Position numbers and translations under genes: made by a program. The notes beneath the pieces are model-generated. The model was given only the letters and a program-made list of their open reading frames with translations. It did not search any database and was not told where the DNA came from. 64,000 bases of DNA from positions 1 through 64,000 of IMG/VR virus record IMGVR_UViG_3300020577_010931; one strand, given 5' to 3'. How positions within the stretch are numbered: position 1 is the stretch's first letter; the number at the start of each line of letters is the position of its first letter. The stretch is from a virus (Duplodnaviria; Caudoviricetes). Positions 12,646-59,573 of the stretch are shown here, piece by piece.

Positions 12646-12881
12646 CCGACTTTGACGGTTGGACCTCAAACACAACTTGGTGGTGTATTTTGAGGCCGGA
12701 CCGGGGTGGTTGCAAAACGCAACCAGTGTACAATGGTGCGGCGCACCATGGCTTATTGCCACTGCACAAATGTACAATACCCCCTGCCCCCGGCAGCGGG
12801 GTGCGCCACCATACCCCGCTGCCGGGTGCGCGTTGCATAAACCGTGCCAAGCGGGGGCAGCATAAAAACGCAAATACCCCC

Positions 12882-12937
12882 TTGGCAGGGGTGCGGGGTG
12901 CGCCTATGTAGGGGGTGCGGCCGTTGCCGCTGCCCCC
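12882..12937 (+). promoter_or_regulatory. Sigma70-like promoter of P4 with 5' hairpin
   Basis: TTGGCA-N17-TATGTA then GGGGGTGCGGC/GCCGCTGCCCCC. Confidence 0.5.
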
Positions 12938-12980
12938 GGCATGCCCGCCTGGGGTACCCCAAGCAAAGGTAGGTAACACC

Positions 12981-13625
12981 ATGGCCAAGCGTACCCCCGC
13001 CACCCCCCGCGCCACCCGCACCCCCAAGGTGGCCACCCCGGCCGCTGCCCCCGCCCCCGTGCTGGCCAGCGTGGCCAACCCGGCGCATGCCAAGGTGGCC
13101 AGCATGTTGCTGGCCAGCGCCACCCCCGGCGCCACGCTGGCCAATGCCCCCGCCACCCCGCTGCCCCCCGTGCTGGCCAGCGTGGCCACCCCGGCCGGGG
13201 TGGCGCTGCCCCCCGCCCCCAAGCATGCCGTTACCGTGGTTGCCCCGCTTGGGGTGGCCACCCGCAACGCGCCGCTGCTTAACGGGCACATGCACGCGGC
13301 CGGGGGCAAGTTGGCCACGGGCAACTTTGCGCTGCCCAATGGTAGCAACGTGCTGGTGGCAGCGGCCGGTAACGGCAGCAAAGCCGCTACCGTGTGGGGG
13401 CAGGTGGCCATTGTGGCCAAGGCACTACAGGTGGCCAGCGCCACGGGCACGTTTACGCGGCAGGCGCTTTACAATGCGCTGTATGCGCACAATTGGGCAG
13501 GGGCAGGTGTTACCCCCAAGTATACCCCCGCGCAGGCGGTAGCGTATGCGGGCTGGGTGGCCACGCTGGCAGCGGGGGCAACTGGCAAGCGTTTTAATTG
13601 CGCTGCCCCCGCCCCCAAGGCGTAA
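12981..13625 (+). CDS. Paralogue family member P4, Asp/Glu-free recoded copy of P3
   Basis: RBS AGGTAGGT, ATG at 12981, TAA stop; TVWGQV..QALYNAL.AHNW..PKYTP..AYAGW..GATGKRF.C shared with P3. Confidence 0.9.
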   Translation: MAKRTPATPRATRTPKVATPAAAPAPVLASVANPAHAKVASMLLASATPGATLANAPATPLPPVLASVATPAGVALPPAPKHAVTVVAPLGVATRNAPLLNGHMHAAGGKLATGNFALPNGSNVLVAAAGNGSKAATVWGQVAIVAKALQVASATGTFTRQALYNALYAHNWAGAGVTPKYTPAQAVAYAGWVATLAAGATGKRFNCAAPAPKA

Positions 13626-13632
13626 GGCGTGC

Positions 13633-13658
13633 GCGGGGGTGGCAGGCGCCACCCCCGC
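13633..13658 (+). terminator. GC hairpin after P4 (no U tract)
   Basis: GCGGGGGTGGC/GCCACCCCCGC. Confidence 0.5.
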
Positions 13659-13690
13659 AACACCTGCCACCCCAAGCAAAGGCCAAGGCC

Positions 13691-14008
13691 ATGCCCCGCC
13701 ACGCGCGCCCCTACACTGCCACCCGTGCCACCCGCACCCCCTGCGTGCAACGTACCGCGCACGCGCATGCCACCCTGCCCCCGCTGCCGTTGTGCCGCAC
13801 CAATGCGCGGGTGCAACGCAGTGTGGTGCGGGGCATGGCGTACGCCACCCGTGCCAAGCGTGGCGCGTTGCGCATGCCCCCGGCGCACGTTGCCGCGTAC
13901 ACGCGCGGCATGCCTGCCCCCCTGCGGCGCATGTATGCGGGTGCGTACACCCCGCACCCCCTGCCCCGTGCCATGGCATGGTGGCAGGCGGGGTACATGC
14001 CGTACTAG
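13691..14008 (+). CDS. Second island ORF, 105 aa, basic, no D/E
   Basis: Preceded by the same CCCCAAGCAAAGG leader as P4; TAG stop. Confidence 0.5.
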   Translation: MPRHARPYTATRATRTPCVQRTAHAHATLPPLPLCRTNARVQRSVVRGMAYATRAKRGALRMPPAHVAAYTRGMPAPLRRMYAGAYTPHPLPRAMAWWQAGYMPY

Positions 14009-14174
14009 CGTACGCGCGTACGCCTACCCTGTATGCTTTGCCCCCGGCGGGTGTACCGCCGGGGGCATTGCCGTACGTGTACCCCCCGGTATGGTACCTT
14101 TGCCGGGGGTATACCCCCGCCGCCGCCCGGCGCTCAGTGACTGCAGACCACAATCGATCTTTCGAAAACGGTTC

Positions 14175-19192: not shown

Positions 19193-19690
19193 ATGAGATC
19201 AGAGACCATGGTACCTGAAAGAAGCGACGACGACCCAGGTCCAATCATCCCATCAATCAAAGGCCGTTCAACGATGTCCTTCCCCGAAGATCTCCCTCCC
19301 ATGACTCATTCTCAGTTCACAGATTTCGTCAATCAACTCAATCGTCGTGTCGCGACTTTGGAGGCCGCGATTCTGCATCCCAACGATCCAGAAGCGATCA
19401 AAATGTTGGATGCGACTTTCCGTCGTCGTATCGTTGAGGAAATCGAGAAGACTCTCACAACTGAGTTCATGACGAGACGATTAGGGTCGTACAGACGTCC
19501 CGATCCCTCCTCTTCCGCATCCATGCGTGATGATCTCAGACCCACGACATCCTTCTCCACCGAGCAGGTCGAACGAGCTCTCGAGGACTGGTTCGGTCCT
19601 CATGGGCTGAACAGAGATAGCCCGAACTACACAATGAACATGCAGAAAATGCGACGCGTCCTGACCAACTTCCTTGGGTCTCTTCAATGA
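19193..19690 (+). CDS. Hypothetical protein (start uncertain)
   Basis: ORF coupled to the DUF3850 gene. Confidence 0.55.
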   Translation: MRSETMVPERSDDDPGPIIPSIKGRSTMSFPEDLPPMTHSQFTDFVNQLNRRVATLEAAILHPNDPEAIKMLDATFRRRIVEEIEKTLTTEFMTRRLGSYRRPDPSSSASMRDDLRPTTSFSTEQVERALEDWFGPHGLNRDSPNYTMNMQKMRRVLTNFLGSLQ

Positions 19691-20022
19691 CCTACCCAGA
19701 CATCGCAAGACGCCGGCAGGGACGTCAGCACGAATTGAAGTGCTGGCCTGAGTTCTTCCGGGAAATTCGCGTCGGAATGAAACGATTTGAGCTCCGGCGC
19801 AATGACAGGAACTTCCAGGTCGGAGATGTCTTGTATCTTCGTGAGTGGGATCCGTCCACCTCGAAGTACTCAGGTCATGAATGTCTCGTAGATGTGATGT
19901 ACATCATCGATGACAGCACTCCATGCGCCGTGTCAGACATGGGTCTTCAGCCCGGCTTCTGCATTATGAGCATTGGCCGTCCCTTCCTCTACACGACGAG
20001 AACGTTCGACGAGCTATCTTAG
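19687..20022 (+). CDS. DUF3850 / ASCH-PUA domain protein
   Basis: HELKCWPEFF...G.KRFELR.NDRNFQVGD.L.LREW. Confidence 0.85.
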   Translation: MTYPDIARRRQGRQHELKCWPEFFREIRVGMKRFELRRNDRNFQVGDVLYLREWDPSTSKYSGHECLVDVMYIIDDSTPCAVSDMGLQPGFCIMSIGRPFLYTTRTFDELS

Positions 20023-40500: not shown

Positions 40501-41703
40501 GTAACCACGACATCGACAGATGTTCGTGAAATCCTATATGGAATCTACGGTGCTCGTGTTCGTTCCATCGATGGAACTGGAACGAAGAAGAGCCCGTGGT
40601 TGACTGTTGATCCGGTGCAATTCAGCGGTCTCCTGGGTCCTCCCGGAGATGTCCAGAATTTCCGTGCCAACATCATCGGTGATACGATTTTCCTCCTCTG
40701 GGATCGTGTGACTGATCTTGATTTGGATCACTATCGTCTCAAATTCTCCCCCGAAGTCGTGGGAGCTTCTTGGACGAGCTCTACTGATCTCTTCCCTATT
40801 ATTCCGAGAGAAGCAACGAACGTCTCTGCTCCTTTCTTGAACGGAACCTATCTGATCAAAGCTGTCGATTTCCAGGGAGTTGAAAGCTCTGTCGAAGCGA
40901 TCGTTATCAATCTCAAAACTGGTGGTCTCAATCAGAATACGGTTCTGATCATCCAGGAAGATCCGACTTTCGCTGGAACGAAGGACGACGTCTACTACTC
41001 AGTGACCCTGGGTGGTATTCGTCTCATTCCTGAGTCCTACGATTTCTTTACTCTCACCGATGTCTTTGATCTATCTGATTTCTTCTTCGGCGAAGGTGTG
41101 GTCGCTGAAGGATACTATTACTTCGACAACGATGTAGATCTCGGAGAAGTCTTTACGAGCCGCTTGGTTCCTGCGATTTCGGTCACTGGTGCCAACGTCC
41201 TTAACGATTTCTTCGGTCCAGAGGACATGTATTCGGTTGCCGATATGTTCGGCAGCCTCGGTGGTGGATACGATGCAATCCTGGAGGTTCGATACACCCA
41301 GGATGATCCCTCTGGGTCTCCGACATGGACTCCTTGGTACCAGTTCCTCACTGGAGACTATACTGCTCGAGCCTTCCAGTTCAGATTGCATCTTCTGACG
41401 ACCAATCCATCTATTACTCCTGTCGTAACGAAGGCAGCAGTGACCGTCGACATGCCGGACCGTGTTGATGGTATGGACGATGTCTCCGGCACAGCCGGTG
41501 GCATTAGAATTACCTTCGATCCGGCGTTTAGAGCCAAGCCCTCTATTGTCATTACCGGGCAATCAATGGATACTGGCGACTACTTCGAGTTGAGCAACCA
41601 GGACGAAACTGGCTTCGACGTCATTTTCTATAATGCGTCGGCAGTTTCGGTTACCCGAGTGTTCGACTGGCATGCCCGAGGCTACGGATATAGGATCGTC
41701 TGA
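37513..41703 (+). CDS. Central tail fibre / host specificity protein J-like
   Basis: G.GGGK..EA.NTL.S, YP.SAL.G, W.NNP.W..YDL, FN3-like C-terminal part. Confidence 0.92.
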   Translation: MVDINYTPGFLRGHGGGKSGGSASGPQEAKNTLKSRATARILELLSEGEIVGLFNGTQSIFLEDTPLEAIDGSHNFEGFAYDLRYGLPDQTYMSGFSQVETENEVGVEVTYDTPITRTINDPLVDAVRVTIRLPVLTHTNDDGDLNGTFVVLAIQYRSFGGPWVSPNIGTYMESFSPPISPESTFFRITVRAPKASLPTDPDTLNTAFIVGLKYRIAGSGSAYTELPGKTYNQVKGGNIGSIIGSITGGSPHAGASQNPQNFIEDVSTTYEITLANDSYEFVPMYYSQIAAAQCRKTTPAMTIVGKTTSPYERSYRFNLPEGGAPWDIRVSRLQPDPEEAKHQNRFYFSRYTEIIDEKFIYPNSALIGVAIDAEQFEGKIPSRSYLIKGIKISIPSNYDPITRTYDGIWDGLFVTDWSNNPVWVLYDLITNRRYGIGRFLNVTEIDKWSFYDAAKYCDEDVPNLYGGVEPRFTFNAWIADRTSALEALQSVASSFRGMIYWSAGAIFLSIDRPKSPTKIFTASNVIDGDFVYQGTSLKDRHTLVRVTWNDPDDFYRPAIEVVEDPDGMVRYGLRDTDLRLLGCSSQGQAYRHGRWTLDTEKSEREMVTFSISWRDADILPGEIFSVQDPFWSGAKFGGRLKSVAASKANLDRSVTLEDGQDYTLWAVMPNGVLQTSPVVNDPGSWDVLNLANPFNFDGNYIPNPDLAGIVEGDVSSTGSLPTGWGWQGISGSTLEILDHGILDGVPFINFRFTWTSAPTATAFITMAPLGVIGAAPGDVWNFAMRFAPLSAWDTDIVSFGHKIDWRDSGSTLNTDTYNYPNPDLQTFDKAQLLVADAPVGTLTARPAARIQVGVGTSGVIEFRLGGWFISSDDEQPMANAVWALVATNIEPRPFRCLMIRETDTHLFEVTGLFYDVTKFARVEEDITIVNPRYYHAPTGPLLPPTNLSFQEYLYKIGNTVRSGVTVSWTAPNDGRIIFYEFQLRDPITDAYTTISTVTTTSTDVREILYGIYGARVRSIDGTGTKKSPWLTVDPVQFSGLLGPPGDVQNFRANIIGDTIFLLWDRVTDLDLDHYRLKFSPEVVGASWTSSTDLFPIIPREATNVSAPFLNGTYLIKAVDFQGVESSVEAIVINLKTGGLNQNTVLIIQEDPTFAGTKDDVYYSVTLGGIRLIPESYDFFTLTDVFDLSDFFFGEGVVAEGYYYFDNDVDLGEVFTSRLVPAISVTGANVLNDFFGPEDMYSVADMFGSLGGGYDAILEVRYTQDDPSGSPTWTPWYQFLTGDYTARAFQFRLHLLTTNPSITPVVTKAAVTVDMPDRVDGMDDVSGTAGGIRITFDPAFRAKPSIVITGQSMDTGDYFELSNQDETGFDVIFYNASAVSVTRVFDWHARGYGYRIV

Positions 41704-51979: not shown

Positions 51980-52678
51980 ATGGCAGATACCACCGAAGCC
52001 CCGAAGACCGAAGAGACCAAGGCGGCCGAGACGCCGAAGACTCCGGCGCCGACCTACAACTACTGGATCGGTTCGAAGCACTCGGACGAGGGCACGGCGC
52101 TCAACTTCGTGATGAAGCACGTCGTCGCCAATCCGGGTGTGTCCCACGAGACGCTGAAGCAGGCAGTCATCGCGGGCTACTCGCGCAAGACCGGCGCCCC
52201 GGTCACTCCGGTCTATGTCCAGTCGCTGATTCGCTACGCCGTGAAGAACGGCAACCTCGTCGAGCGCGCCGAGGCGGCCGGTCCGGGTCTCCCGACCAAG
52301 CCCGTCAAGGAATCGGCGCCGGGGACCACGACCGCTTCGGGCGAGACGAAGCCGGCTGAGCCGGTCGCGTCGGAGTCCGGCCAGGAAGTCCTCAAGGCCC
52401 TCGAGGGCAAGACGGGTCCGTTCACCCGTGACGAGATCGCGACGCACACCGGCAAGAAGGTCGTCGCGATCACCCGTACGCTGATGAAGCTCGTCAAGGA
52501 CGGCTTCCTCATCGAGACGAAGGAGGGCGAGGTCACCAAGTACAGCGTCGCTCCGTCGAAGACGGGTGCTCCGGCGACCACCGAGGGTACGGCAGCGACC
52601 GAGGCCATCTCGCCGCCGGAGACGACCGGCGTCGTGACCGATGGGACCGAGACGGCCGGCACCGACGCCAGCGAGTAA
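51980..52678 (+). CDS. Protein with two winged-helix-like domains and low-complexity linkers
   Basis: FTRDEIATHTGKK...RTL.KLVKDGFL..KEG...YS; strongly biased codons. Confidence 0.6.
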   Translation: MADTTEAPKTEETKAAETPKTPAPTYNYWIGSKHSDEGTALNFVMKHVVANPGVSHETLKQAVIAGYSRKTGAPVTPVYVQSLIRYAVKNGNLVERAEAAGPGLPTKPVKESAPGTTTASGETKPAEPVASESGQEVLKALEGKTGPFTRDEIATHTGKKVVAITRTLMKLVKDGFLIETKEGEVTKYSVAPSKTGAPATTEGTAATEAISPPETTGVVTDGTETAGTDASE

Positions 52679-52697: not shown

Positions 52698-52731
52698 AGA
52701 CCCCGCCGAGAGACCCTCGGCGGGGTCTTTT
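52698..52731 (+). terminator. Intrinsic terminator
   Basis: AGACCCCGCCGAG/CTCGGCGGGGTCT then TTT. Confidence 0.85.
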
Positions 52732-52746
52732 ACTTTGGAGGATCGC

Positions 52747-53646
52747 TTGGATCAGGTTGTGTTCGACAAAGATATGCTCGATACGGCGATCTACTATTTC
52801 AATGAACGGGAACGAATTCGACAGAAGAAGGAAGAAGGAGAGAAGTGGCCCTGGACCAAAGATCCAATCCTCCAGCAGTTCTCGTTCACGAACATCCTGC
52901 GTGAACACGACCGAACCTCCTCCTGGGCCAATCAGAACTGGTATGCTCCGCACTATGAAGCAGATCCAGCTGTTCAGCTTTTCAACTGCGGCGTGTTCCG
53001 CTATTTCGGTACGATCGAATTTGCCGAAGATCTCGGTTGGCAGGACAAGTTCGATCCGGACTATATCATCGGCACTGCTGATGAGAGAATGAAATACAAG
53101 AAGAAGGTCTTCACCGGGGCCTATGTCATTACGAACCAAGGGATCGCGAGACCGAAACAAGAAGTGGTCACAGAGATTTTCCTGAAGGGTCTCTGGGAAT
53201 CGCGCCATGCTATACTTAGTGCATACAATCGTTCCCACAAATGGGAAGACGCTGCGCGTGTTCTGATGGGAGTTGCCGGATTCGGCGGATCTGGATTCAT
53301 GGCCAAAGAGGTATTGCAGGACGCAATGTTCACAGCGGCAATGCCTCGGAACGAGGTTATCGATCGTATGTCCTGGAGTCCTGTTGGGCCAGGAGCCCAG
53401 AGAGGACTGAACCGTCTACAGGCTCGACCGCTTGATCAGAGGGTTCGAGAAGCCGATGGTATTCGGCAAATGAAGCATCTACAGTCTTGGCTTGTGGATG
53501 CGGCTGAACCTCACATGAGCATTGTTCTGGATCGGTTCGATCTCCACGCCGTCCAGTTCATCTGCTGTGAAATCGACAAGTACGTTCGCGTACGCAACGG
53601 CGAGGGACGTCCACGACAGACGTATCGCCAGGGAAGACACGCATGA
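52747..53646 (+). CDS. 5-hmdU DNA kinase (HMUDK helical / aGPT-Pplase1 family)
   Basis: ERERIR..KE.G..WPWT.DPIL..F.FTN..RE.DR; GPGA.RGLNR; CE.DKY.R. Confidence 0.82.
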   Translation: MDQVVFDKDMLDTAIYYFNERERIRQKKEEGEKWPWTKDPILQQFSFTNILREHDRTSSWANQNWYAPHYEADPAVQLFNCGVFRYFGTIEFAEDLGWQDKFDPDYIIGTADERMKYKKKVFTGAYVITNQGIARPKQEVVTEIFLKGLWESRHAILSAYNRSHKWEDAARVLMGVAGFGGSGFMAKEVLQDAMFTAAMPRNEVIDRMSWSPVGPGAQRGLNRLQARPLDQRVREADGIRQMKHLQSWLVDAAEPHMSIVLDRFDLHAVQFICCEIDKYVRVRNGEGRPRQTYRQGRHA

Positions 53647-54965
53647 AGATCCTTATCGCCTGCTACCAGATGATGGACCTCGGTGGTATCGTCGGGGACC
53701 TGGAAGCTCTGTATCAGGGTCTCACGACCCTGGGTCACGAAGTGGAGGTTCGTCAGCTTTGCTGGCGCACAACGATTGGTTCCCAGAGAATCGATACGAC
53801 TGGGATGATCAAGGGGAGCTTTGGTCTCTGGCATGATCAGACTGGATGGGTTTGGGACCAGGTACATCGGATTCCCTACAAGGGTCCCGAGAATATCAGC
53901 CGGTGGAAAGAATTTGCCAACGGATTTGATGCGGTCATCTGGCATCTTCCCGTGCCGTCACAGAACAACGAGAATGAGGGAAATAGCGATTGGCTGGAAC
54001 TGTATGAGATCTCTCCAGCACAGATCGCGTATGTCCATGACGGGAACCTTCACGAGGGTTATCCGTGGGTCTATGCTATCCAGAATCGAATCAAAGCATT
54101 CGTCGCGACTCAGGGAGCTGCCTATGGAAGTCTCGCGCAGGTTCCGAATCGGTCGTATCTGGTGATGTCGGGCCAGGTCGATATCGAGAATCGGAAGAGG
54201 ATGCGCGAGCCTCGCTGGGAAGATAGACTCCCTGGGTTCTATGCGAATTTCACGGCGAAGGGATGGAAGCATCTCGCAGATCTGGTGAGAGCAGTTCCTC
54301 ACATGAATGCGTATCCGAAGATCTATGCGGGAAACGGCATCGATCTCAGATACATGCGATCCCCCGACAAGTGTCCTCCCAAGTATTTCGCAAGCGAACA
54401 ATACGATCCTGATATGAAGCCCGAGTGGAAGGGCAAGAAGATCTGGGACTTGGCGCTGGAACACAAGCTCCAGCATCGCGACTACGTTCATCCCCAGGAG
54501 CGAGACAATCTGATGTCTCGTATGAGAGTCCATATCGATCCTTCGTGGTCCAAGAAGTATGCGAGGTTCGGTGGACATTGGAATCGCACGACCGTCGATT
54601 CCATGATTGTCGGTACGATTCCTATCGCACGGAATCTCGGTATCGCCACGAATGAAGAAGGTTACGGGGATATCTTCAATCCCGGCGTGAACTACTTCAT
54701 GATTCCCTGGAATACGACGCCCAAGCAGTTCGCAGACGAAGTGCGACGTGCGATCTGTATGTCTACCCAGGAGTACAAGCGATATCTCGAGGAGATGGAT
54801 CTCATCATTGACACCTGGGACAATGTCAAGGTCGCTGAACGCATCGTGAAGGCGATTACTGGAGATACCAAGAGCGATCTTCCAACCCAGGTGGGTGGAT
54901 TTAACGAGACTCTATCTCTTCGCGCCGAGGACGTGTGCCGGACCTTCTTTAAGGTCTCTTGGTAG
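53643..54965 (+). CDS. GT-B fold (GT4-like) glycosyltransferase
   Basis: MKILI..GG..GHEV N-terminus, HD motif, DSM..GTIPI; ATGA-coupled to the kinase. Confidence 0.7.
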   Translation: MKILIACYQMMDLGGIVGDLEALYQGLTTLGHEVEVRQLCWRTTIGSQRIDTTGMIKGSFGLWHDQTGWVWDQVHRIPYKGPENISRWKEFANGFDAVIWHLPVPSQNNENEGNSDWLELYEISPAQIAYVHDGNLHEGYPWVYAIQNRIKAFVATQGAAYGSLAQVPNRSYLVMSGQVDIENRKRMREPRWEDRLPGFYANFTAKGWKHLADLVRAVPHMNAYPKIYAGNGIDLRYMRSPDKCPPKYFASEQYDPDMKPEWKGKKIWDLALEHKLQHRDYVHPQERDNLMSRMRVHIDPSWSKKYARFGGHWNRTTVDSMIVGTIPIARNLGIATNEEGYGDIFNPGVNYFMIPWNTTPKQFADEVRRAICMSTQEYKRYLEEMDLIIDTWDNVKVAERIVKAITGDTKSDLPTQVGGFNETLSLRAEDVCRTFFKVSW

Positions 54966-55016
54966 CGCCAAGACCGTCCCAGCCGTACAATAGGTCACAC
55001 CTACCAAGGGAGCCCA

Positions 55017-56015
55017 GTGATGGGAGTAGAAAGCGCGTACTCGACACGCAACGTCAACACGGGATTCTTCACACTCTACAATGCGATCCAGAAGGAGGGC
55101 CTCCCTTCCGATAGTCGCAACGGTCCGGTGCTTCGCTGGCCGACTCCGATCATCGTGACCTACGAGAATCCCTGTGAACGAGTTCTCTTCGACGAGACTC
55201 GAGATCACAACTACTTCTTCGCATTCTTTGAGTCTCTCTGGATGCTCGCAGGTCGGGACGATCTGGAGTTCCTGAGTCTCTTCAACAAGAATATGGCGAA
55301 CTACTCGGATGACGGGAAGCTCATTCGTGGTTCGGCGTATGGACGGAGATGGAGAGACTGGTTCGGCTACGATCAAATTTCACACGTCATCCATGAGCTC
55401 CAGGACAATCCCACTTCTCGTCGCTGTGTTCTGACGATGTGGGATGCGACGAGCGATCCTCTCGTCAGCAGCAAAGACATCCCCTGCAATACTCAGGCGT
55501 ATGTCGAAGTGGACAATTGGGGTGAGGTCAATCTCACTGTCCTGAATCGTTCCAACGATCTTGTGTACGGGATGTTCGGCAGCAACGCTGTCCACTTCAG
55601 TTTCCTTCTGGAGTACATCGCAGCAAACCTTGGGCGCAAGGTCGGTGTCTATCATCAATTCTCCAACAATCTCCATCTCTACACTGACTTTCCAATCACG
55701 AAGAAGATCGGTCCCCGTGTTGAAGTCGACGATCCGTATTCAGATGGACGAGTGTCGACATTCCCTATGTTCCGGAGAGGAGATGAAGATGAGCTCCGGG
55801 ACTGGGATATCGATCTTCAGCGGAGTTTCGATCTCTCCTGGGGCAAGTTCGAAACGGAATTCTTCTGCGAAGTTGTGCATCCCATGAGAGAGACGCATCG
55901 ACTTTATCGTATGAAGAAATACGATGAAGCTCTCGCAACATGCGAGAAAATCAAGGCCACCGACATTCGCTACAATGCGAGGGAGTGGCTCAACAGAAGG
56001 ATCACGAAACGGTGA
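55017..56015 (+). CDS. Thymidylate synthase homologue, probable dUMP hydroxymethylase
   Basis: PCN catalytic Cys, RSND...N (Asn = dUMP specificity), NLHLY. Confidence 0.85.
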   Translation: MMGVESAYSTRNVNTGFFTLYNAIQKEGLPSDSRNGPVLRWPTPIIVTYENPCERVLFDETRDHNYFFAFFESLWMLAGRDDLEFLSLFNKNMANYSDDGKLIRGSAYGRRWRDWFGYDQISHVIHELQDNPTSRRCVLTMWDATSDPLVSSKDIPCNTQAYVEVDNWGEVNLTVLNRSNDLVYGMFGSNAVHFSFLLEYIAANLGRKVGVYHQFSNNLHLYTDFPITKKIGPRVEVDDPYSDGRVSTFPMFRRGDEDELRDWDIDLQRSFDLSWGKFETEFFCEVVHPMRETHRLYRMKKYDEALATCEKIKATDIRYNAREWLNRRITKR

Positions 56016-56530
56016 AACTCGTCACTATCTGGAAGACCGCTCGGACTCGTCGCTATCACACGGAGCCGACGGATCAGGGTGGACAGAACGTCGCCGACCA
56101 TACGTTCGGCACGATGCTGATTATGAACTATCTCTGGCCGTACGCCAGGAAGGAAGTCTTCATCTTCCTGATGACTCATGATCTTCCTGAATCCTTCACG
56201 GGTGATTCGCCGGCTCCCGCCAAGCGGAAGAACCCGAAGCTCTGGGCTCTCTTGAACGAAATGGAGGAAGACTGGCTGCACGAAAATGAAATCGAAGTCC
56301 CTGAGTTGGATGATCTTGAGCACATCCAGGTTCATGTCTGTGATGGACTCGAGGCTCTCCTCTACAGTGCGCATCAGGTTGCTCAGGGCAACCGTCTGTT
56401 TGGCGCGATGGTAGCTCGAGCGCTAAAATACGTTGGCGCAGAGGCCGACAAGCTCCATGAGAGTGACGCTTCTCGCATTCGAGTCATTTTGCAGGAAGCG
56501 AAACACTATGCTGACACAGCAATCGAGTGA
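56012..56530 (+). CDS. HD-domain 5'-deoxynucleotidase (YfbR-like)
   Basis: RYH, NVADH, HDLPE..TGD.P.P.K. Confidence 0.82.
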   Translation: MKLVTIWKTARTRRYHTEPTDQGGQNVADHTFGTMLIMNYLWPYARKEVFIFLMTHDLPESFTGDSPAPAKRKNPKLWALLNEMEEDWLHENEIEVPELDDLEHIQVHVCDGLEALLYSAHQVAQGNRLFGAMVARALKYVGAEADKLHESDASRIRVILQEAKHYADTAIE

Positions 56531-57059
56531 GACACTCGAGAAGTTCCCGTATCTGACGTATCTCCCTCTTACTGCGGAAGCTGACGTCGAACAGCTTCTG
56601 CAGAAGGAAATCGCCTACGGTGGGTCCTGGATCAAGCGCGGCGGTATCGGTGCGTTTATGATGCTGGCTCGGAAGTGGGATCGTATCGAGACTCAGGTCA
56701 GCGGGACGGCAGGTGTCGACAAGTACGACATCGTCGGTGCGATTCTGAAGAATCCGGACCCAGGCGGGATTCTGGATGACATCGGCGATCTCCGTCGATA
56801 TCTGGCTCTCGTGGAAGCGTACGCTCACACGAAGCTCCATGGTCCTTCCAGCGCCGGGGCTGAGATCCTGAAGGCTGGTGAGTGGGAAGAGAGACCTGCT
56901 CACGCGGCAACCCATTCGCTTCCTTGGCAAATTGCCGAGAGAGCGAAAGTTTCCGCCGGTGGAGATTCTCAGTCAGACCATGTTGACGGGATGGCTCAAC
57001 CATTCGGTTTCGACGCATCAACTGATAGCGCGCCTGAATTTGAGGCGACGCACCAGTAG
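56508..57059 (+). CDS. MazG-like nucleotide-modification-associated protein (Nmad1/DUF1599-like)
   Basis: K..YGGSW.KRG..G..RK.DR; D...DL..YL.L. Confidence 0.65.
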   Translation: MLTQQSSETLEKFPYLTYLPLTAEADVEQLLQKEIAYGGSWIKRGGIGAFMMLARKWDRIETQVSGTAGVDKYDIVGAILKNPDPGGILDDIGDLRRYLALVEAYAHTKLHGPSSAGAEILKAGEWEERPAHAATHSLPWQIAERAKVSAGGDSQSDHVDGMAQPFGFDASTDSAPEFEATHQ

Positions 57060-57068
57060 GAGTCAGAC

Positions 57069-58943
57069 ATGCTCTCGCTTCCGGAACTCAAAGGCCCGTT
57101 CGCACTTGACTTGGAAACCAAAGACGGAGGCTTGCAGCATGATCGAGGGCCGGGGTGGGCCTACCCCGGTCATCCTCAGTGGGATGGTTTCATTGCTGGA
57201 TTTGCGATCGCCAATGAGCAATATCCCAGCGGTCTCTATATTCCAATTCGACATCAAGGCGGAGACAACTACGATGAGCAGCAGACTCTGAGATGGATGA
57301 GAGCGGCGGTCAAGCAGGCTCCGTACATCGTAGTCGGTAACGCTCAATACGAAACAGGCTGGTGTTCCCGTGATGATATCGATCTCACTCAGACCCGTAT
57401 CCATGATGTCCTGATTCAAGCGCCTCTCATCTGGGAACACGATTACAACTACAGTCTGGATGAGGTCGCATACAAGTATCTCGGTATTCGAAAGAACGAA
57501 GCTGATCTTCGAGCAGCCATCACCAAAGAGCTTGGAATCACCAAGTTCACAAAGAGTGGCGCGGAAGATAAGGTGAACATCTGGCGTCTCTCCGGTAAGG
57601 GAGCGTCTCCTTACGGTACGACAGATGGTGTTCTGACCTGGGGTCTCTTCAAGAAACTCCAGGATATGATTGTCGAACAGGAACTCGAGCAGGTCTACGA
57701 TCTCGAGTGCGGTATGATTCCTCTCCTGGTATCCATGCGTCGCCAGGGCGTACGAGTAGATCTCAATAAGGCTGAGAAGCTCGAAAAAGAATTCCAGGAG
57801 ATTGAAGACAATATCATTGCGGAGCTGAAGTGGAGAACTGGCTTCACTCTGGTTCCCAGTGATCCCAAGTCGGCAGGTCCCATTCTTCGCGAAGCTGGTA
57901 TCATTCCTCCGAAGACAGCAAAGACCGGCAAGGACAGTATTACGAAGGGATGGCTCGATTCTCTTGGGGCAGAGGCCGGTCAGCTTCCCGGTCTCATCAA
58001 CAAGTGTCGGAAGTATTGGAAGGCGAGAACTACTTTCATCCGAGATTTCATCTACGATTTTGAATATCTAGGTCGAGTTCACAGTGAACTGAATTCTGTC
58101 AAGGGAGAAGCTGGAGGTACGATCGGGGGTAGATTCTCTAGCAAGAATCCCAACCTTCAGCAGATTCCTTCTCGTGACAAGGACATCGGACCCAAGGTCC
58201 GGAGCATGTATCTCCCGGAAGAGGGAGAGCAATGGGCGGCAGTTGACTTCTCGTCCCAGGAGCCACGTCTCACAGTTCACTTTGCTGCTCTAGCGAACGT
58301 TCGAGGCGGACGAGAAGCGAAGCAGAAGTATATTGACAATCCTCGCATCGACTATCATCAGATGGTCGCTGATATGTGCGGAATTTCCAGAAAGGAAGCG
58401 AAGACCATTAATCTTGGCTTGGCCTACGGGATGGGAGGAGTTAAGCTCTGTAAATCCCTGGGTCTCCCCACGGCGTGGAAGAGAAAGCCCAACGGTCAAT
58501 TGATCGAAGTCGCCGGTCCGGAAGGTCAGGCTCTTATCGACAAGTATCATGAGAATGCTCCGTTCGTTCGAGGTCTTATGAGAAAGGCCGAGGACCGAGC
58601 CAAGAAGATGGGATACGTCCGTACCATCCTGGGTCGTCGTTGCCGCTTCCCGAAAATCGAAGGTGAATTCGGTCAATTCGACTGGGTCCACAAGGCAATG
58701 AATCGCATCATCCAGGGTTCGGCTGCCGATTTCACCAAGAAAGCTATGCTCGATCTCTGGCAGGTGGGTGTCCAGCCTCTGGTTTCCGTTCATGACGAAC
58801 TTGGCTTCTCTGTGAAGAGCAAGGAGGAAGCTGAGAAATATGCGAAGATCATGTGTGATGCAATTGAACTTGAGATTCCCATGATCTCGGATATTGAGAT
58901 CGGCATCAATTGGGGATCGTCTATGCTCGGGATGGATATCTGA
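57069..58943 (+). CDS. DNA polymerase family A with 3'-5' exonuclease
   Basis: DLET, NPNLQQIP, DFSSQEPR, AKTINLGLAYG, VHDE. Confidence 0.95.
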   Translation: MLSLPELKGPFALDLETKDGGLQHDRGPGWAYPGHPQWDGFIAGFAIANEQYPSGLYIPIRHQGGDNYDEQQTLRWMRAAVKQAPYIVVGNAQYETGWCSRDDIDLTQTRIHDVLIQAPLIWEHDYNYSLDEVAYKYLGIRKNEADLRAAITKELGITKFTKSGAEDKVNIWRLSGKGASPYGTTDGVLTWGLFKKLQDMIVEQELEQVYDLECGMIPLLVSMRRQGVRVDLNKAEKLEKEFQEIEDNIIAELKWRTGFTLVPSDPKSAGPILREAGIIPPKTAKTGKDSITKGWLDSLGAEAGQLPGLINKCRKYWKARTTFIRDFIYDFEYLGRVHSELNSVKGEAGGTIGGRFSSKNPNLQQIPSRDKDIGPKVRSMYLPEEGEQWAAVDFSSQEPRLTVHFAALANVRGGREAKQKYIDNPRIDYHQMVADMCGISRKEAKTINLGLAYGMGGVKLCKSLGLPTAWKRKPNGQLIEVAGPEGQALIDKYHENAPFVRGLMRKAEDRAKKMGYVRTILGRRCRFPKIEGEFGQFDWVHKAMNRIIQGSAADFTKKAMLDLWQVGVQPLVSVHDELGFSVKSKEEAEKYAKIMCDAIELEIPMISDIEIGINWGSSMLGMDI

Positions 58944-59188
58944 TGAAAGCAAGAGATCTGGGAATCAAAGGGACGCCCTGCACTTGTGAGAGCGAGTGTG
59001 TTCGTGGTGTCCCTCAGCATCACTGTGTTCAATTCGCTGCTCGAACAATGAAGATGGTCGTTCGAGTTTGTGACACATGCCGCGGAAATCGTTGGCATGG
59101 TAACGGTCGTTGTCTCCACTGCGAAGGATACAAGAATGAAGGTTTTCCGAATGTCCCCGCGAGCCCGCCTCCCGGAGAGATCATCTGA
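58943..59188 (+). CDS. Small Cys-rich protein
   Basis: Multiple CxxC; coupled to polymerase stop. Confidence 0.5.
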   Translation: MKARDLGIKGTPCTCESECVRGVPQHHCVQFAARTMKMVVRVCDTCRGNRWHGNGRCLHCEGYKNEGFPNVPASPPPGEII

Positions 59189-59573
59189 GGGAGCAGTCGG
59201 CTACGATCTCTTTGTCTGTCTTCCCGAAGACCGTGAATTCATGGTTATTCATCCCGGGAAGGCTGAGCTCGTTCCGACCGGTCTGAAGATCGACCTGGGG
59301 TGGCATTGGGCGAAGATCGAGTCTCGCTCGGGTCTTGCTCTGAAGAGCGGAGTCTCCGTCCCCTGTGGAGTGATCGACCCAGACTATCGCGGCGAATGGG
59401 GAGTCGTCATCCGGAACAACGGCCCCCTCCCCCTCAGCTTCAAGCACGGCGACAAGGTTGCGCAATTTGTGCTGATGTCGCCACATTTCAGCGATGTCAA
59501 GGAAGTGGACTCGGAGGACAAGCTGACTTCCACCAAGAGAGGCGGCGGTGGTTTCGGGAGCAGTGGATCGTGA
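59136..59573 (+). CDS. dut: Trimeric dUTPase
   Basis: GYDL, SRSGLA, GVIDPDYRGE, RG.GGFGSSG. Confidence 0.95.
   Translation: MKVFRMSPRARLPERSSEGAVGYDLFVCLPEDREFMVIHPGKAELVPTGLKIDLGWHWAKIESRSGLALKSGVSVPCGVIDPDYRGEWGVVIRNNGPLPLSFKHGDKVAQFVLMSPHFSDVKEVDSEDKLTSTKRGGGGFGSSGS

Follow-up and report, generated by a model that had tools for sequence, protein, structure and literature searches.

A predicted glycosyltransferase-based cassette for thymidine modification, with a clade 1 aGPT-Pplase protein in place of a DNA kinase gene, in an uncultured tailed phage

The DNA considered here (the window) is a stretch of 64,000 nucleotides that forms the start of the linear, 90,950-bp IMG/VR record IMGVR_UViG_3300020577_010931, a Caudoviricetes virus with an estimated completeness of 78%. 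A replication and nucleotide module occupies the plus strand between 48.6 and 63 kb of the window, and within it lies the candidate DNA modification cassette that is our subject. Its genes are, in order, a PF18723 ('HMUDK_hel') protein that we will refer to as HEL (52747–53646, in an open reading frame (ORF) that starts at 52735, from which HEL residues are numbered); a GT-B-type glycosyltransferase (GT; 53643–54965); a thymidylate synthase (TS) homologue (55017–56015; PF00303, E 1e-20; phrog_5131, E 4e-97); an HD-domain, YfbR-like 5'-deoxynucleotidase (55940–56530, with its true start probably near 56009; PF12917, E 5e-8; PF13023, E 7e-6); and a conserved small protein (56508–57059). The family A DNA polymerase PolA (57069–58943; PF00476, E 7.5e-51; syntenic in 58 related loci) and dUTPase (59070–59573; PF00692 at 59163–59567 in a six-frame search, E 7e-23) follow. 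The Pfam, PHROG and six-frame matches thus bear out the gene list and coordinates of a first-pass annotation of the locus, which had listed the TS homologue, the HD nucleotidase and PolA, with dUTPase nearby.

That annotation had described the first gene as 'HMUDK-like', a 5-hydroxymethyldeoxyuridine (5-hmdU) DNA kinase. The 303-amino-acid (aa) HEL ORF matches PF18723 only (E 2e-35, 123 bits where the curated cut-off is 25, and profile positions 2–277 of 281 covered; E 5.9e-37 in the six-frame search), and aligns with MP1412_14 in hhalign at E 2.8e-59. The Walker A motif [AG]x4GK[ST] was not found in ORF 52735–53646, and the sole convincing P-loops of the record belong to a helicase and a D5-type primase-helicase. 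With the P-loop kinase family PF18748 absent from the whole record as well, the kinase assignment does not stand. In the annotated cassette of MP1412, which is M6-like, the genes run in the order amino-acid:DNA transferase (AADT; PF18724), pyridoxal phosphate (PLP) enzyme, radical S-adenosylmethionine (rSAM) enzyme, P-loop kinase (PF18748), a separate PF18723 protein (329 aa), Nmad5 and TS. Because of this separation, and because the SN1 genome paper names the genes of an MP1412-type cassette aGPT-Pplase2, kinase and aGPT-Pplase1 (PMC9476957) and Joint Genome Institute (JGI) annotations of PF18723 homologues carry both the old and the new family names, we conclude that PF18723 is the former aGPT-Pplase clade 1, of the M6 gp55 type. 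Apparently the name used in Pfam derives from SP10 gp186, a kinase-Pplase1 fusion (PMC5889632), and we reject the kinase function that it implies, as the best 120 homologues are about 280–310 aa long and carry PF18723 alone. No fusion of HEL to a kinase or a glycosyltransferase was found among the long proteins, which comprise two proteins of 924 aa only; one of these (P0122, from a European Nucleotide Archive metagenome) has PF18723 fused to PF23011 and a PHD finger and looks eukaryotic or giant-virus-like, and the other (P0123) carries PF18723 alone.

The wider search for the enzymes of the canonical pathway gave a consistent result. No six-frame match at E<=10 was seen anywhere in the 90,950-bp record for the kinase PF18748, for the AADT family PF18724 or for Nmad5 (PF18757), and the same PF18748 search recovers MP1412_13, our positive control, at E 1e-19. 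Another 34 ORFs of the record, when scanned with Pfam, yielded no gene for a kinase, an AADT, a PLP, rSAM or flavin adenine dinucleotide (FAD) enzyme or nucleoside diphosphate (NDP)-sugar synthesis. The earlier observation that the window holds no AADT can therefore be extended to the record. The companion assumption, that phospho-hmdU has to be resolved by a transferase, falls away, since in a record with no 5-hmdU DNA kinase there is no phospho-hmdU to be resolved.

Related phage records tell the same story. A profile scan of IMG/VR with GT, which succeeded where a single-sequence scan had failed, recovered 183 stretches encoding relatives; 41 such records contain the kinase in none, PF18723 in 32 and TS in 34, and the 21 of them that are at least 90% complete contain it in none, with PF18723 in 20 and TS in 20. 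Stretches encoding HEL relatives number at least 555, and in 49 further records taken from these the kinase is over cut-off in none, the TET-associated glycosyltransferase TAGT (PF20691) is present in 23, GT-B in 12 and both together in none. Altogether PF18748 passes its cut-off in 0 of 90 related records (41 GT-seeded and 49 HEL-seeded), and is found in 0 of the 35 that are at least 90% complete (21 and 14 respectively), several of which have terminal repeats. PF18724 is over cut-off in 0 of the 41 GT-seeded records, its sub-threshold C-terminal matches (13 bits) falling on the relatives' HEL genes. With no kinase co-encoded in the record or in these 35 near-complete relatives, 5-phosphomethyldeoxyuridine (5-PmdU), the substrate of AADT, cannot form here. 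It might still be argued that the canonical pathway operates, with a kinase and an AADT encoded in the approximately 22% of the genome beyond the record, and with GT adding a sugar to the amino-acid-derived side chain or to leftover 5-hydroxymethyluracil (hmU). The linear, incomplete record and the scattering of modification genes over the ViI genome (PMC5889632) would favour such a view. However, the counts among the relatives oppose it, and the kinase adjoins Pplase1 in kinase-type phages, whereas the fully read neighbourhood here has GT instead, so that we give this explanation very little chance of being correct.

Structure prediction provides further insights into HEL. Its AlphaFold2 model, built from 30 homologues, is all-helical (predicted local distance difference test (pLDDT) 92). 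When the model was compared by VIA-align with 48,161 PDB representatives, the first match was PaMx11 gp46/PUGT (8z2m; Z 10.1, 223 residues aligned), an AADT that acts as a 5-PmdU glycinyltransferase (PMC11472151), followed by the queuine salvage enzyme QNG1, OGG/AGOG, Mag1, NTHL1 and EndoIII (Z 7–9.7). These Z values are within the range of chance helical matches, yet all the top rows are of helix-hairpin-helix (HhH) type. Foldseek of the model against the PDB gave nothing at E<=0.001 and weak matches to HhH glycosylases only, and phmmer of HEL against PDB sequences gave no match. The predicted fold is thus like that of the HhH DNA glycosylases, which PUGT shares, notwithstanding the lack of significant sequence similarity between the two proteins (HEL has no PF18724 match, and hhalign of the HEL profile with a single AADT sequence gives E 0.26). 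In each, a cysteine appears to lie within a comparable ...IQ..LC.[FW].K motif of the last helix. In HEL, Cys278, Glu279, Lys282 and Arg285 are invariant in 30 sequences, and the motif is kept in MP1412_14 as LCEFDKYERVR; in PUGT, Cys247 is the nucleophile that attacks C6 of the base (PMC11472151). The sole local alignment of HEL with AADT sets Cys278 on Cys247. This alignment is non-significant on its own, and the two cysteines are to be taken as putative equivalents. On the model, HEL would be a stand-alone HhH-fold paralogue of the amino-acid:DNA transferases, to which it comes closest, with a nucleophile-type cysteine.

The HEL stop codon TGA overlaps the ATG of the next gene as ATGA, and both this coupling and the GT-B nature of the second gene, already proposed in the first-pass annotation, are upheld, the former by reading the overlap directly and the latter by structural comparison. 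At the level of sequence the 440-aa GT is elusive. It matches no Pfam or PHROG family (the best is PF13692 at E 0.14), including the Pfam AGT family PF11440 at E<=10, and there was no match by tblastn to 50,697 phage records of INPHARED or by phmmer to PDB sequences. Its homologues, of which there are at least 144, are metagenomic and 410–470 aa long; about 30 of them carry PF00534 or PF13692, and the family profile matches GlgA at E 0.0016. The AlphaFold2 model (pLDDT 95) is a GT-B, two-Rossmann fold, for which Foldseek returns PimA, HepE, BshA, MshA and GlgA at E 1e-14 to 1e-11 (PimA, HepE and BshA at 5e-14) with TM scores of 0.6–0.7. VIA-align of residues 1–410 gives Z 23–26.6, with the top three tied: 6eji (Z 26.6), the T4 alpha-glucosyltransferase AGT with DNA (1y6f, Z 26.4) and PimA (Z 26.1). 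The alignment with T4 AGT is the longest (342 of 394 residues, root-mean-square deviation 3.6, 13% identity), and T4 beta-glucosyltransferase reaches Z 17.5. K206/K209 and an H312..D motif are invariant in the family. From its nearest folds (PimA, BshA, MshA and AGT) we predict that GT is a GT4-like, retaining-type enzyme that uses an NDP-sugar, and, with the genomic context taken into account, that it is a DNA 5-hydroxymethyluracil glycosyltransferase.

Because PimA, HepE and BshA are cell-envelope GT4 enzymes, and because the JGI label of some homologues is 'glycosyltransferase involved in cell wall biosynthesis', one may ask whether GT acts on a host surface polymer or a protein rather than on DNA, its position being incidental. 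We regard this as very unlikely: the gene is always within a replication and nucleotide module, beside TS and HEL or beside a TET/JBP gene, TAGT substitutes for it in the same slot, and T4 AGT is among the tied best structural matches and gives the longest alignment.

The presumed supplier of hmU is the TS homologue, in which the catalytic Cys157 is present together with Asp181 and Asn190. Asn190 aligns with N177 of E. coli TS (gsNavhf against pfNiasy), in agreement with the earlier reading of an Asn at the specificity position. The protein is 39–43% identical over 96% of its length to M6/YuA-like enzymes annotated as deoxyuridylate hydroxymethyltransferase, and next closest to ViI-like and SPO1-like enzymes. 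From Asn190 and these relatives we predict that it makes 5-hmdUMP. Whether a TS homologue acts as a hydroxymethylase or a methylase is not readable from sequence, and the best PDB sequence match is MilA, a CMP hydroxymethylase; TS homologues that make 5-hydroxy-dCMP also exist (PMC13326640). It could thus be that this one works as a normal thymidylate synthase does, or forms a different base, and that the substrate of GT and HEL is not hmU. This seems unlikely, however, as MilA has Asp at the pyrimidine-specificity position while Asn, Cys and Asp are found at the positions of TS N177, C146 and D169 in 64 of 64 homologues beside GT, as the full-length identity is to dUMP hydroxymethylases, and as PF18723 has so far been tied to hmU-hypermodifying phages (PMC5889632).

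Of the remaining genes, the HD nucleotidase is the counterpart of MP1412_17, is kept after the TS gene in 48 loci and likely serves in control of the nucleotide pool. The small protein (ORF 56433–57059, core approximately residues 26–145) has homologues in 28 related loci and matches no Pfam or PHROG family. We do not adopt the label 'MazG-like' that it had been given, since Pfam MazG is found nowhere in the record. An ESM Atlas lead to a phage cluster containing DUF1599, and weak structural similarity to nucleoside triphosphate pyrophosphatase models (TM 0.41–0.45), indicate that it is possibly a DUF1599 or all-alpha NTP pyrophosphatase-like protein.

Comparison of related loci shows what is constant in this arrangement and what is not. 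The order HEL, GT, TS, HD, (small protein), PolA is repeated in dozens of loci, often with overlapping HEL and GT genes, and in some loci the order is GT, HEL, TS instead; an Asn-type TS homologue adjoins GT in the window and in more than 60 loci. The phages closest in synteny have SNF2, Pam3 gp32–34, a 224-aa ORF, HEL, a slot gene, TS, HD, PolA and dUTPase, and their slot is occupied by TAGT. In the 67 HEL-seeded loci with enough flanking sequence, the gene beside HEL is GT-B in 23, TAGT in 23 and a member of a third family in 10, with none of the three within 3 kb in 11; among these 11, some carry GT-B at another place of the record, while in others an unassigned ORF of 338–353 aa fills the slot. 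The third family (323–364 aa) has no Pfam match, and its ESM Atlas features, which we treat as a lead only, group with glycosyltransferases, including an AGT-family cluster; examples occur in some complete genomes (L101:8924-9919, L121:8903-9997 and L150:8885-9856). In L121 an FkbM-type methyltransferase gene follows the slot gene. HEL is thus the constant partner of interchangeable glycosyltransferase families.

GT is also found in other company. Seven records have a GT-B homologue without TS and HEL, and in five of these (G017, G039, G024, G030 and G033) there is a Tet_JBP dioxygenase, which directly adjoins GT-B in the two for which coordinates were compared (L036/G017 and L080/G039). The closest relative of GT (54% identity) is in L005:8001-14618, where it is followed by TAGT, Gly_transf_sug, two GT2 genes, TS and HD, and where PF18723 is absent; this five-glycosyltransferase variant suggests an oligosaccharide on the base. 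What every context of the GT family shares is an enzyme that produces a 5-hydroxymethylpyrimidine. HEL, for its part, accompanies TS-based hmU systems of both the kinase and the GT type, and not the arrangement of TET/JBP with GT.

These patterns bear on a further model, in which GT replaces the kinase outright: the sugar would be a leaving group that Pplase1 displaces with an amine, an amino acid or a hydride, and the final base would be free of sugar. Such a role would suit the translational coupling of HEL and GT, the retention in HEL of the AADT-type Cys motif and fold, and the fact that one HEL family is partnered by either GT or the kinase. Against this, a phosphate leaves more readily than a glycoside, the same GT-B family stands beside TET/JBP without HEL, and the presence of three unrelated families in the slot, and of five glycosyltransferases in L005, resembles the diversification of a final glycan. 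Because the slot diversifies in the manner of a glycan-building step we rate this model lower, and consider it improbable.

Taken together, we propose that the cassette probably directs a kinase-independent thymidine hypermodification, in which 5-hmdU in DNA is O-glycosylated without a phosphorylated intermediate. In this proposal the TS homologue would make 5-hmdUMP from dUMP, as known for the family (PMC8989533), while the HD nucleotidase, dUTPase and the small DUF1599-like protein would bias the nucleotide pool and the phage PolA would build DNA in which 5-hmdU replaces T, again by analogy with their families. After replication, as its fold and context suggest, GT would use a host NDP-sugar to glycosylate the hmU of DNA at its 5-hydroxymethyl group. 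The sugar is probably host-derived, because there are no sugar-nucleotide genes among the ORFs scanned. The product would be an O-glycosylated, base J-like hmU, probably alpha-linked because GT shares its fold with retaining enzymes, T4 AGT among them. Of the two end products initially entertained, glycosylated hmU is thereby retained as the best-supported reading, given the fold and context of GT, whereas sugar-phosphate hmU has no specific support, the top folds being ordinary retaining NDP-sugar glycosyltransferases that include T4 AGT.

Several observations weigh against this proposal. The record is not complete, GT of the window passes no Pfam glycosyltransferase threshold, and TS homologues may also make dTMP or 5-hydroxy-dCMP (PMC13326640). 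The equivalence of the HEL and AADT cysteines combines a non-significant alignment with a fold match that has no residue map, and M6 gp55, the counterpart of HEL, is dispensable for hypermodification in vitro (PMC8989533).

The role of HEL in a pathway without phosphate is accordingly the more speculative part of the model. Our preferred guess is that it acts on hmU residues left by GT, or selects them by sequence context, and the chemistry might be an AADT-like route through a C6 thiol and an exocyclic methylene without a phosphate leaving group. In hypermodifying phages the 5-hmdU left over in the polymer is turned into thymine, in contexts that are sequence-specific (PMC8989533), and since this conversion exists and HEL travels with TS-based hmU systems, a role on hmU spared by GT is attractive. 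The lack of HEL in systems of TET/JBP with GT, which leave no hmU over, fits such a role. We suggest only tentatively, and with more doubt than conviction, that HEL is an active DNA-base enzyme needing no phosphate leaving group, with conversion of 5-hmdU to thymine on the polymer as one candidate role and, as another, that of a context-selecting transferase which chooses the T positions (possibly TC steps) that receive sugar.

A separate observation concerns the base composition of the record. GA/TC is its commonest dinucleotide pair (17.8% of steps), and is entirely missing from positions 12699–14134 of the window (1,435 bp), the next-longest gap being 53 bp. GA/TC-free islands are also seen in three of five related complete genomes, all three of them with HEL, namely G001 (475 bp at 40995), G015 (301 bp at 19199) and the TAGT-type G063 (991 bp at 19927); G004 and G052 have none. 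Such an island suggests a DNA modification in TC context and a region that is kept free of it.

The surroundings of the cassette can be described briefly. Upstream in the module are an SNF2 helicase, Pam3 gp33-like and gp34-like proteins, and a 232-aa protein (51980–52678, plus strand) with weak helix-turn-helix (HTH) similarity (Pfam HTH_Crp_2 at E 0.009, below cut-off; PHROG MarR-like at 1e-4). Next comes a terminator-like GC hairpin (ccccgccg...cggcgggg) with a run of T after it, seen directly in the sequence at 52701–52731 on the same strand, which divides these genes from the modification cassette. An ORF of 224–228 aa in L090 and L091 occupies the position of the 232-aa protein before the Pplase1 gene, with weak similarity in the case of L091 (E 5.6e-4), and it is uncertain whether the protein belongs to the cassette. 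Downstream of dUTPase the module continues with a 5'-3' exonuclease, a T4 endonuclease V-type pyrimidine-dimer DNA glycosylase (PF03013; 60941–61489), which is kept in the syntenic relatives L090 and L091, and an SF1 helicase. Elsewhere in the record (G000) there are tail and structural genes at 14–46 kb and, downstream of the replication module, genes for the terminase large subunit and class I ribonucleotide reductase subunits (64462–65931 and 70061–72839), while a Ro60/TROVE protein with a von Willebrand factor A domain is encoded on the minus strand beyond the window (78984–80621; L003:3984-5621). It is probable that the record, which is linear, represents a permuted or partial genome.

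With the clusters of M6, YuA, PaMx11, ViI and PhiW-14 (PMC5889632, PMC8989533) the cassette shares a TS-type hydroxymethylase, the PF18723 protein, the HD nucleotidase and placement before PolA. It differs from them in lacking the P-loop kinase, AADT, Nmad5 and the PLP, rSAM and FAD tailoring enzymes, and in having a glycosyltransferase at the kinase side. To our knowledge, all characterised thymidine hypermodifications that start from 5-hmdU use a DNA kinase and an amino-acid:DNA transferase.

Two glycosylation systems can be compared with the predicted one. T4 AGT, which glucosylates 5-hydroxymethylcytosine (5-hmC) in DNA, has the GT-B fold in common with GT (1y6f/1xv5) and is likewise encoded by a phage, where its substrate is a hydroxymethylpyrimidine that a TS homologue supplies; however, general GT4 enzymes score as well as AGT does, and the predicted acceptor of GT is hmU rather than hmC. 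Base J of kinetoplastids is beta-D-glucosyl-hydroxymethyluracil, made by JBP oxidation of T and then by JGT. It is of the same predicted product class, in which the hydroxymethyl group of hmU in DNA bears a sugar, but here the hmU would come from the nucleotide pool, and GT is unrelated to JGT and probably retaining (alpha). TAGT, which in the phages nearest by synteny lies in the same slot, flanked by HEL and TS, differs from GT in fold and family.

Virus TAGT and GT-A/GT-B systems have been characterised as glycosylating 5hmC, and a Pplase1 partner is not described in the parts of those accounts considered here (PMC8256090; bioRxiv 10.1101/2023.12.21.572611); according to Pyle et al. (bioRxiv 10.1101/2023.12.21.572611), virome GT-B genes are often near ThyS. 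There is also a precedent in uncultured pelagiphages, for which TS, aG/PT-PPlase1, a 5'-deoxynucleotidase and a putative glucosyltransferase near PolA were noted as 'DNA hypermodification partner AMGs' (auxiliary metabolic genes; PMC9599517). Many of the approximately 60-kb marine contigs found here resemble that group (HTVC023P-type), whereas the phage of the window is larger (over 91 kb). That study is annotation only, and the sections of it considered here make no statement on missing kinase or AADT, on interchange of glycosyltransferases or on the product. A full-text literature search found no paper stating that kinase and AADT are missing, that glycosyltransferase families interchange, or what the cassette makes, and sugar-decorated hydroxymethyluracil was not found in the literature as a measured phage product.

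Hundreds of contigs from uncultured phages contain the cassette without kinase and AADT, and three glycosyltransferase families take turns in it. If our reading is correct, sugar-decorated hydroxymethyluracil, a viral analogue of base J, is carried by a large phage group, mostly marine and environmental, and the cassette would provide the first experimental handle on the clade 1 aGPT-Pplase family. DNA of this kind would have consequences for the restriction of these phages, for their targeting by CRISPR and for their sequencing, and the cassette could yield new DNA-glycosylating enzymes.

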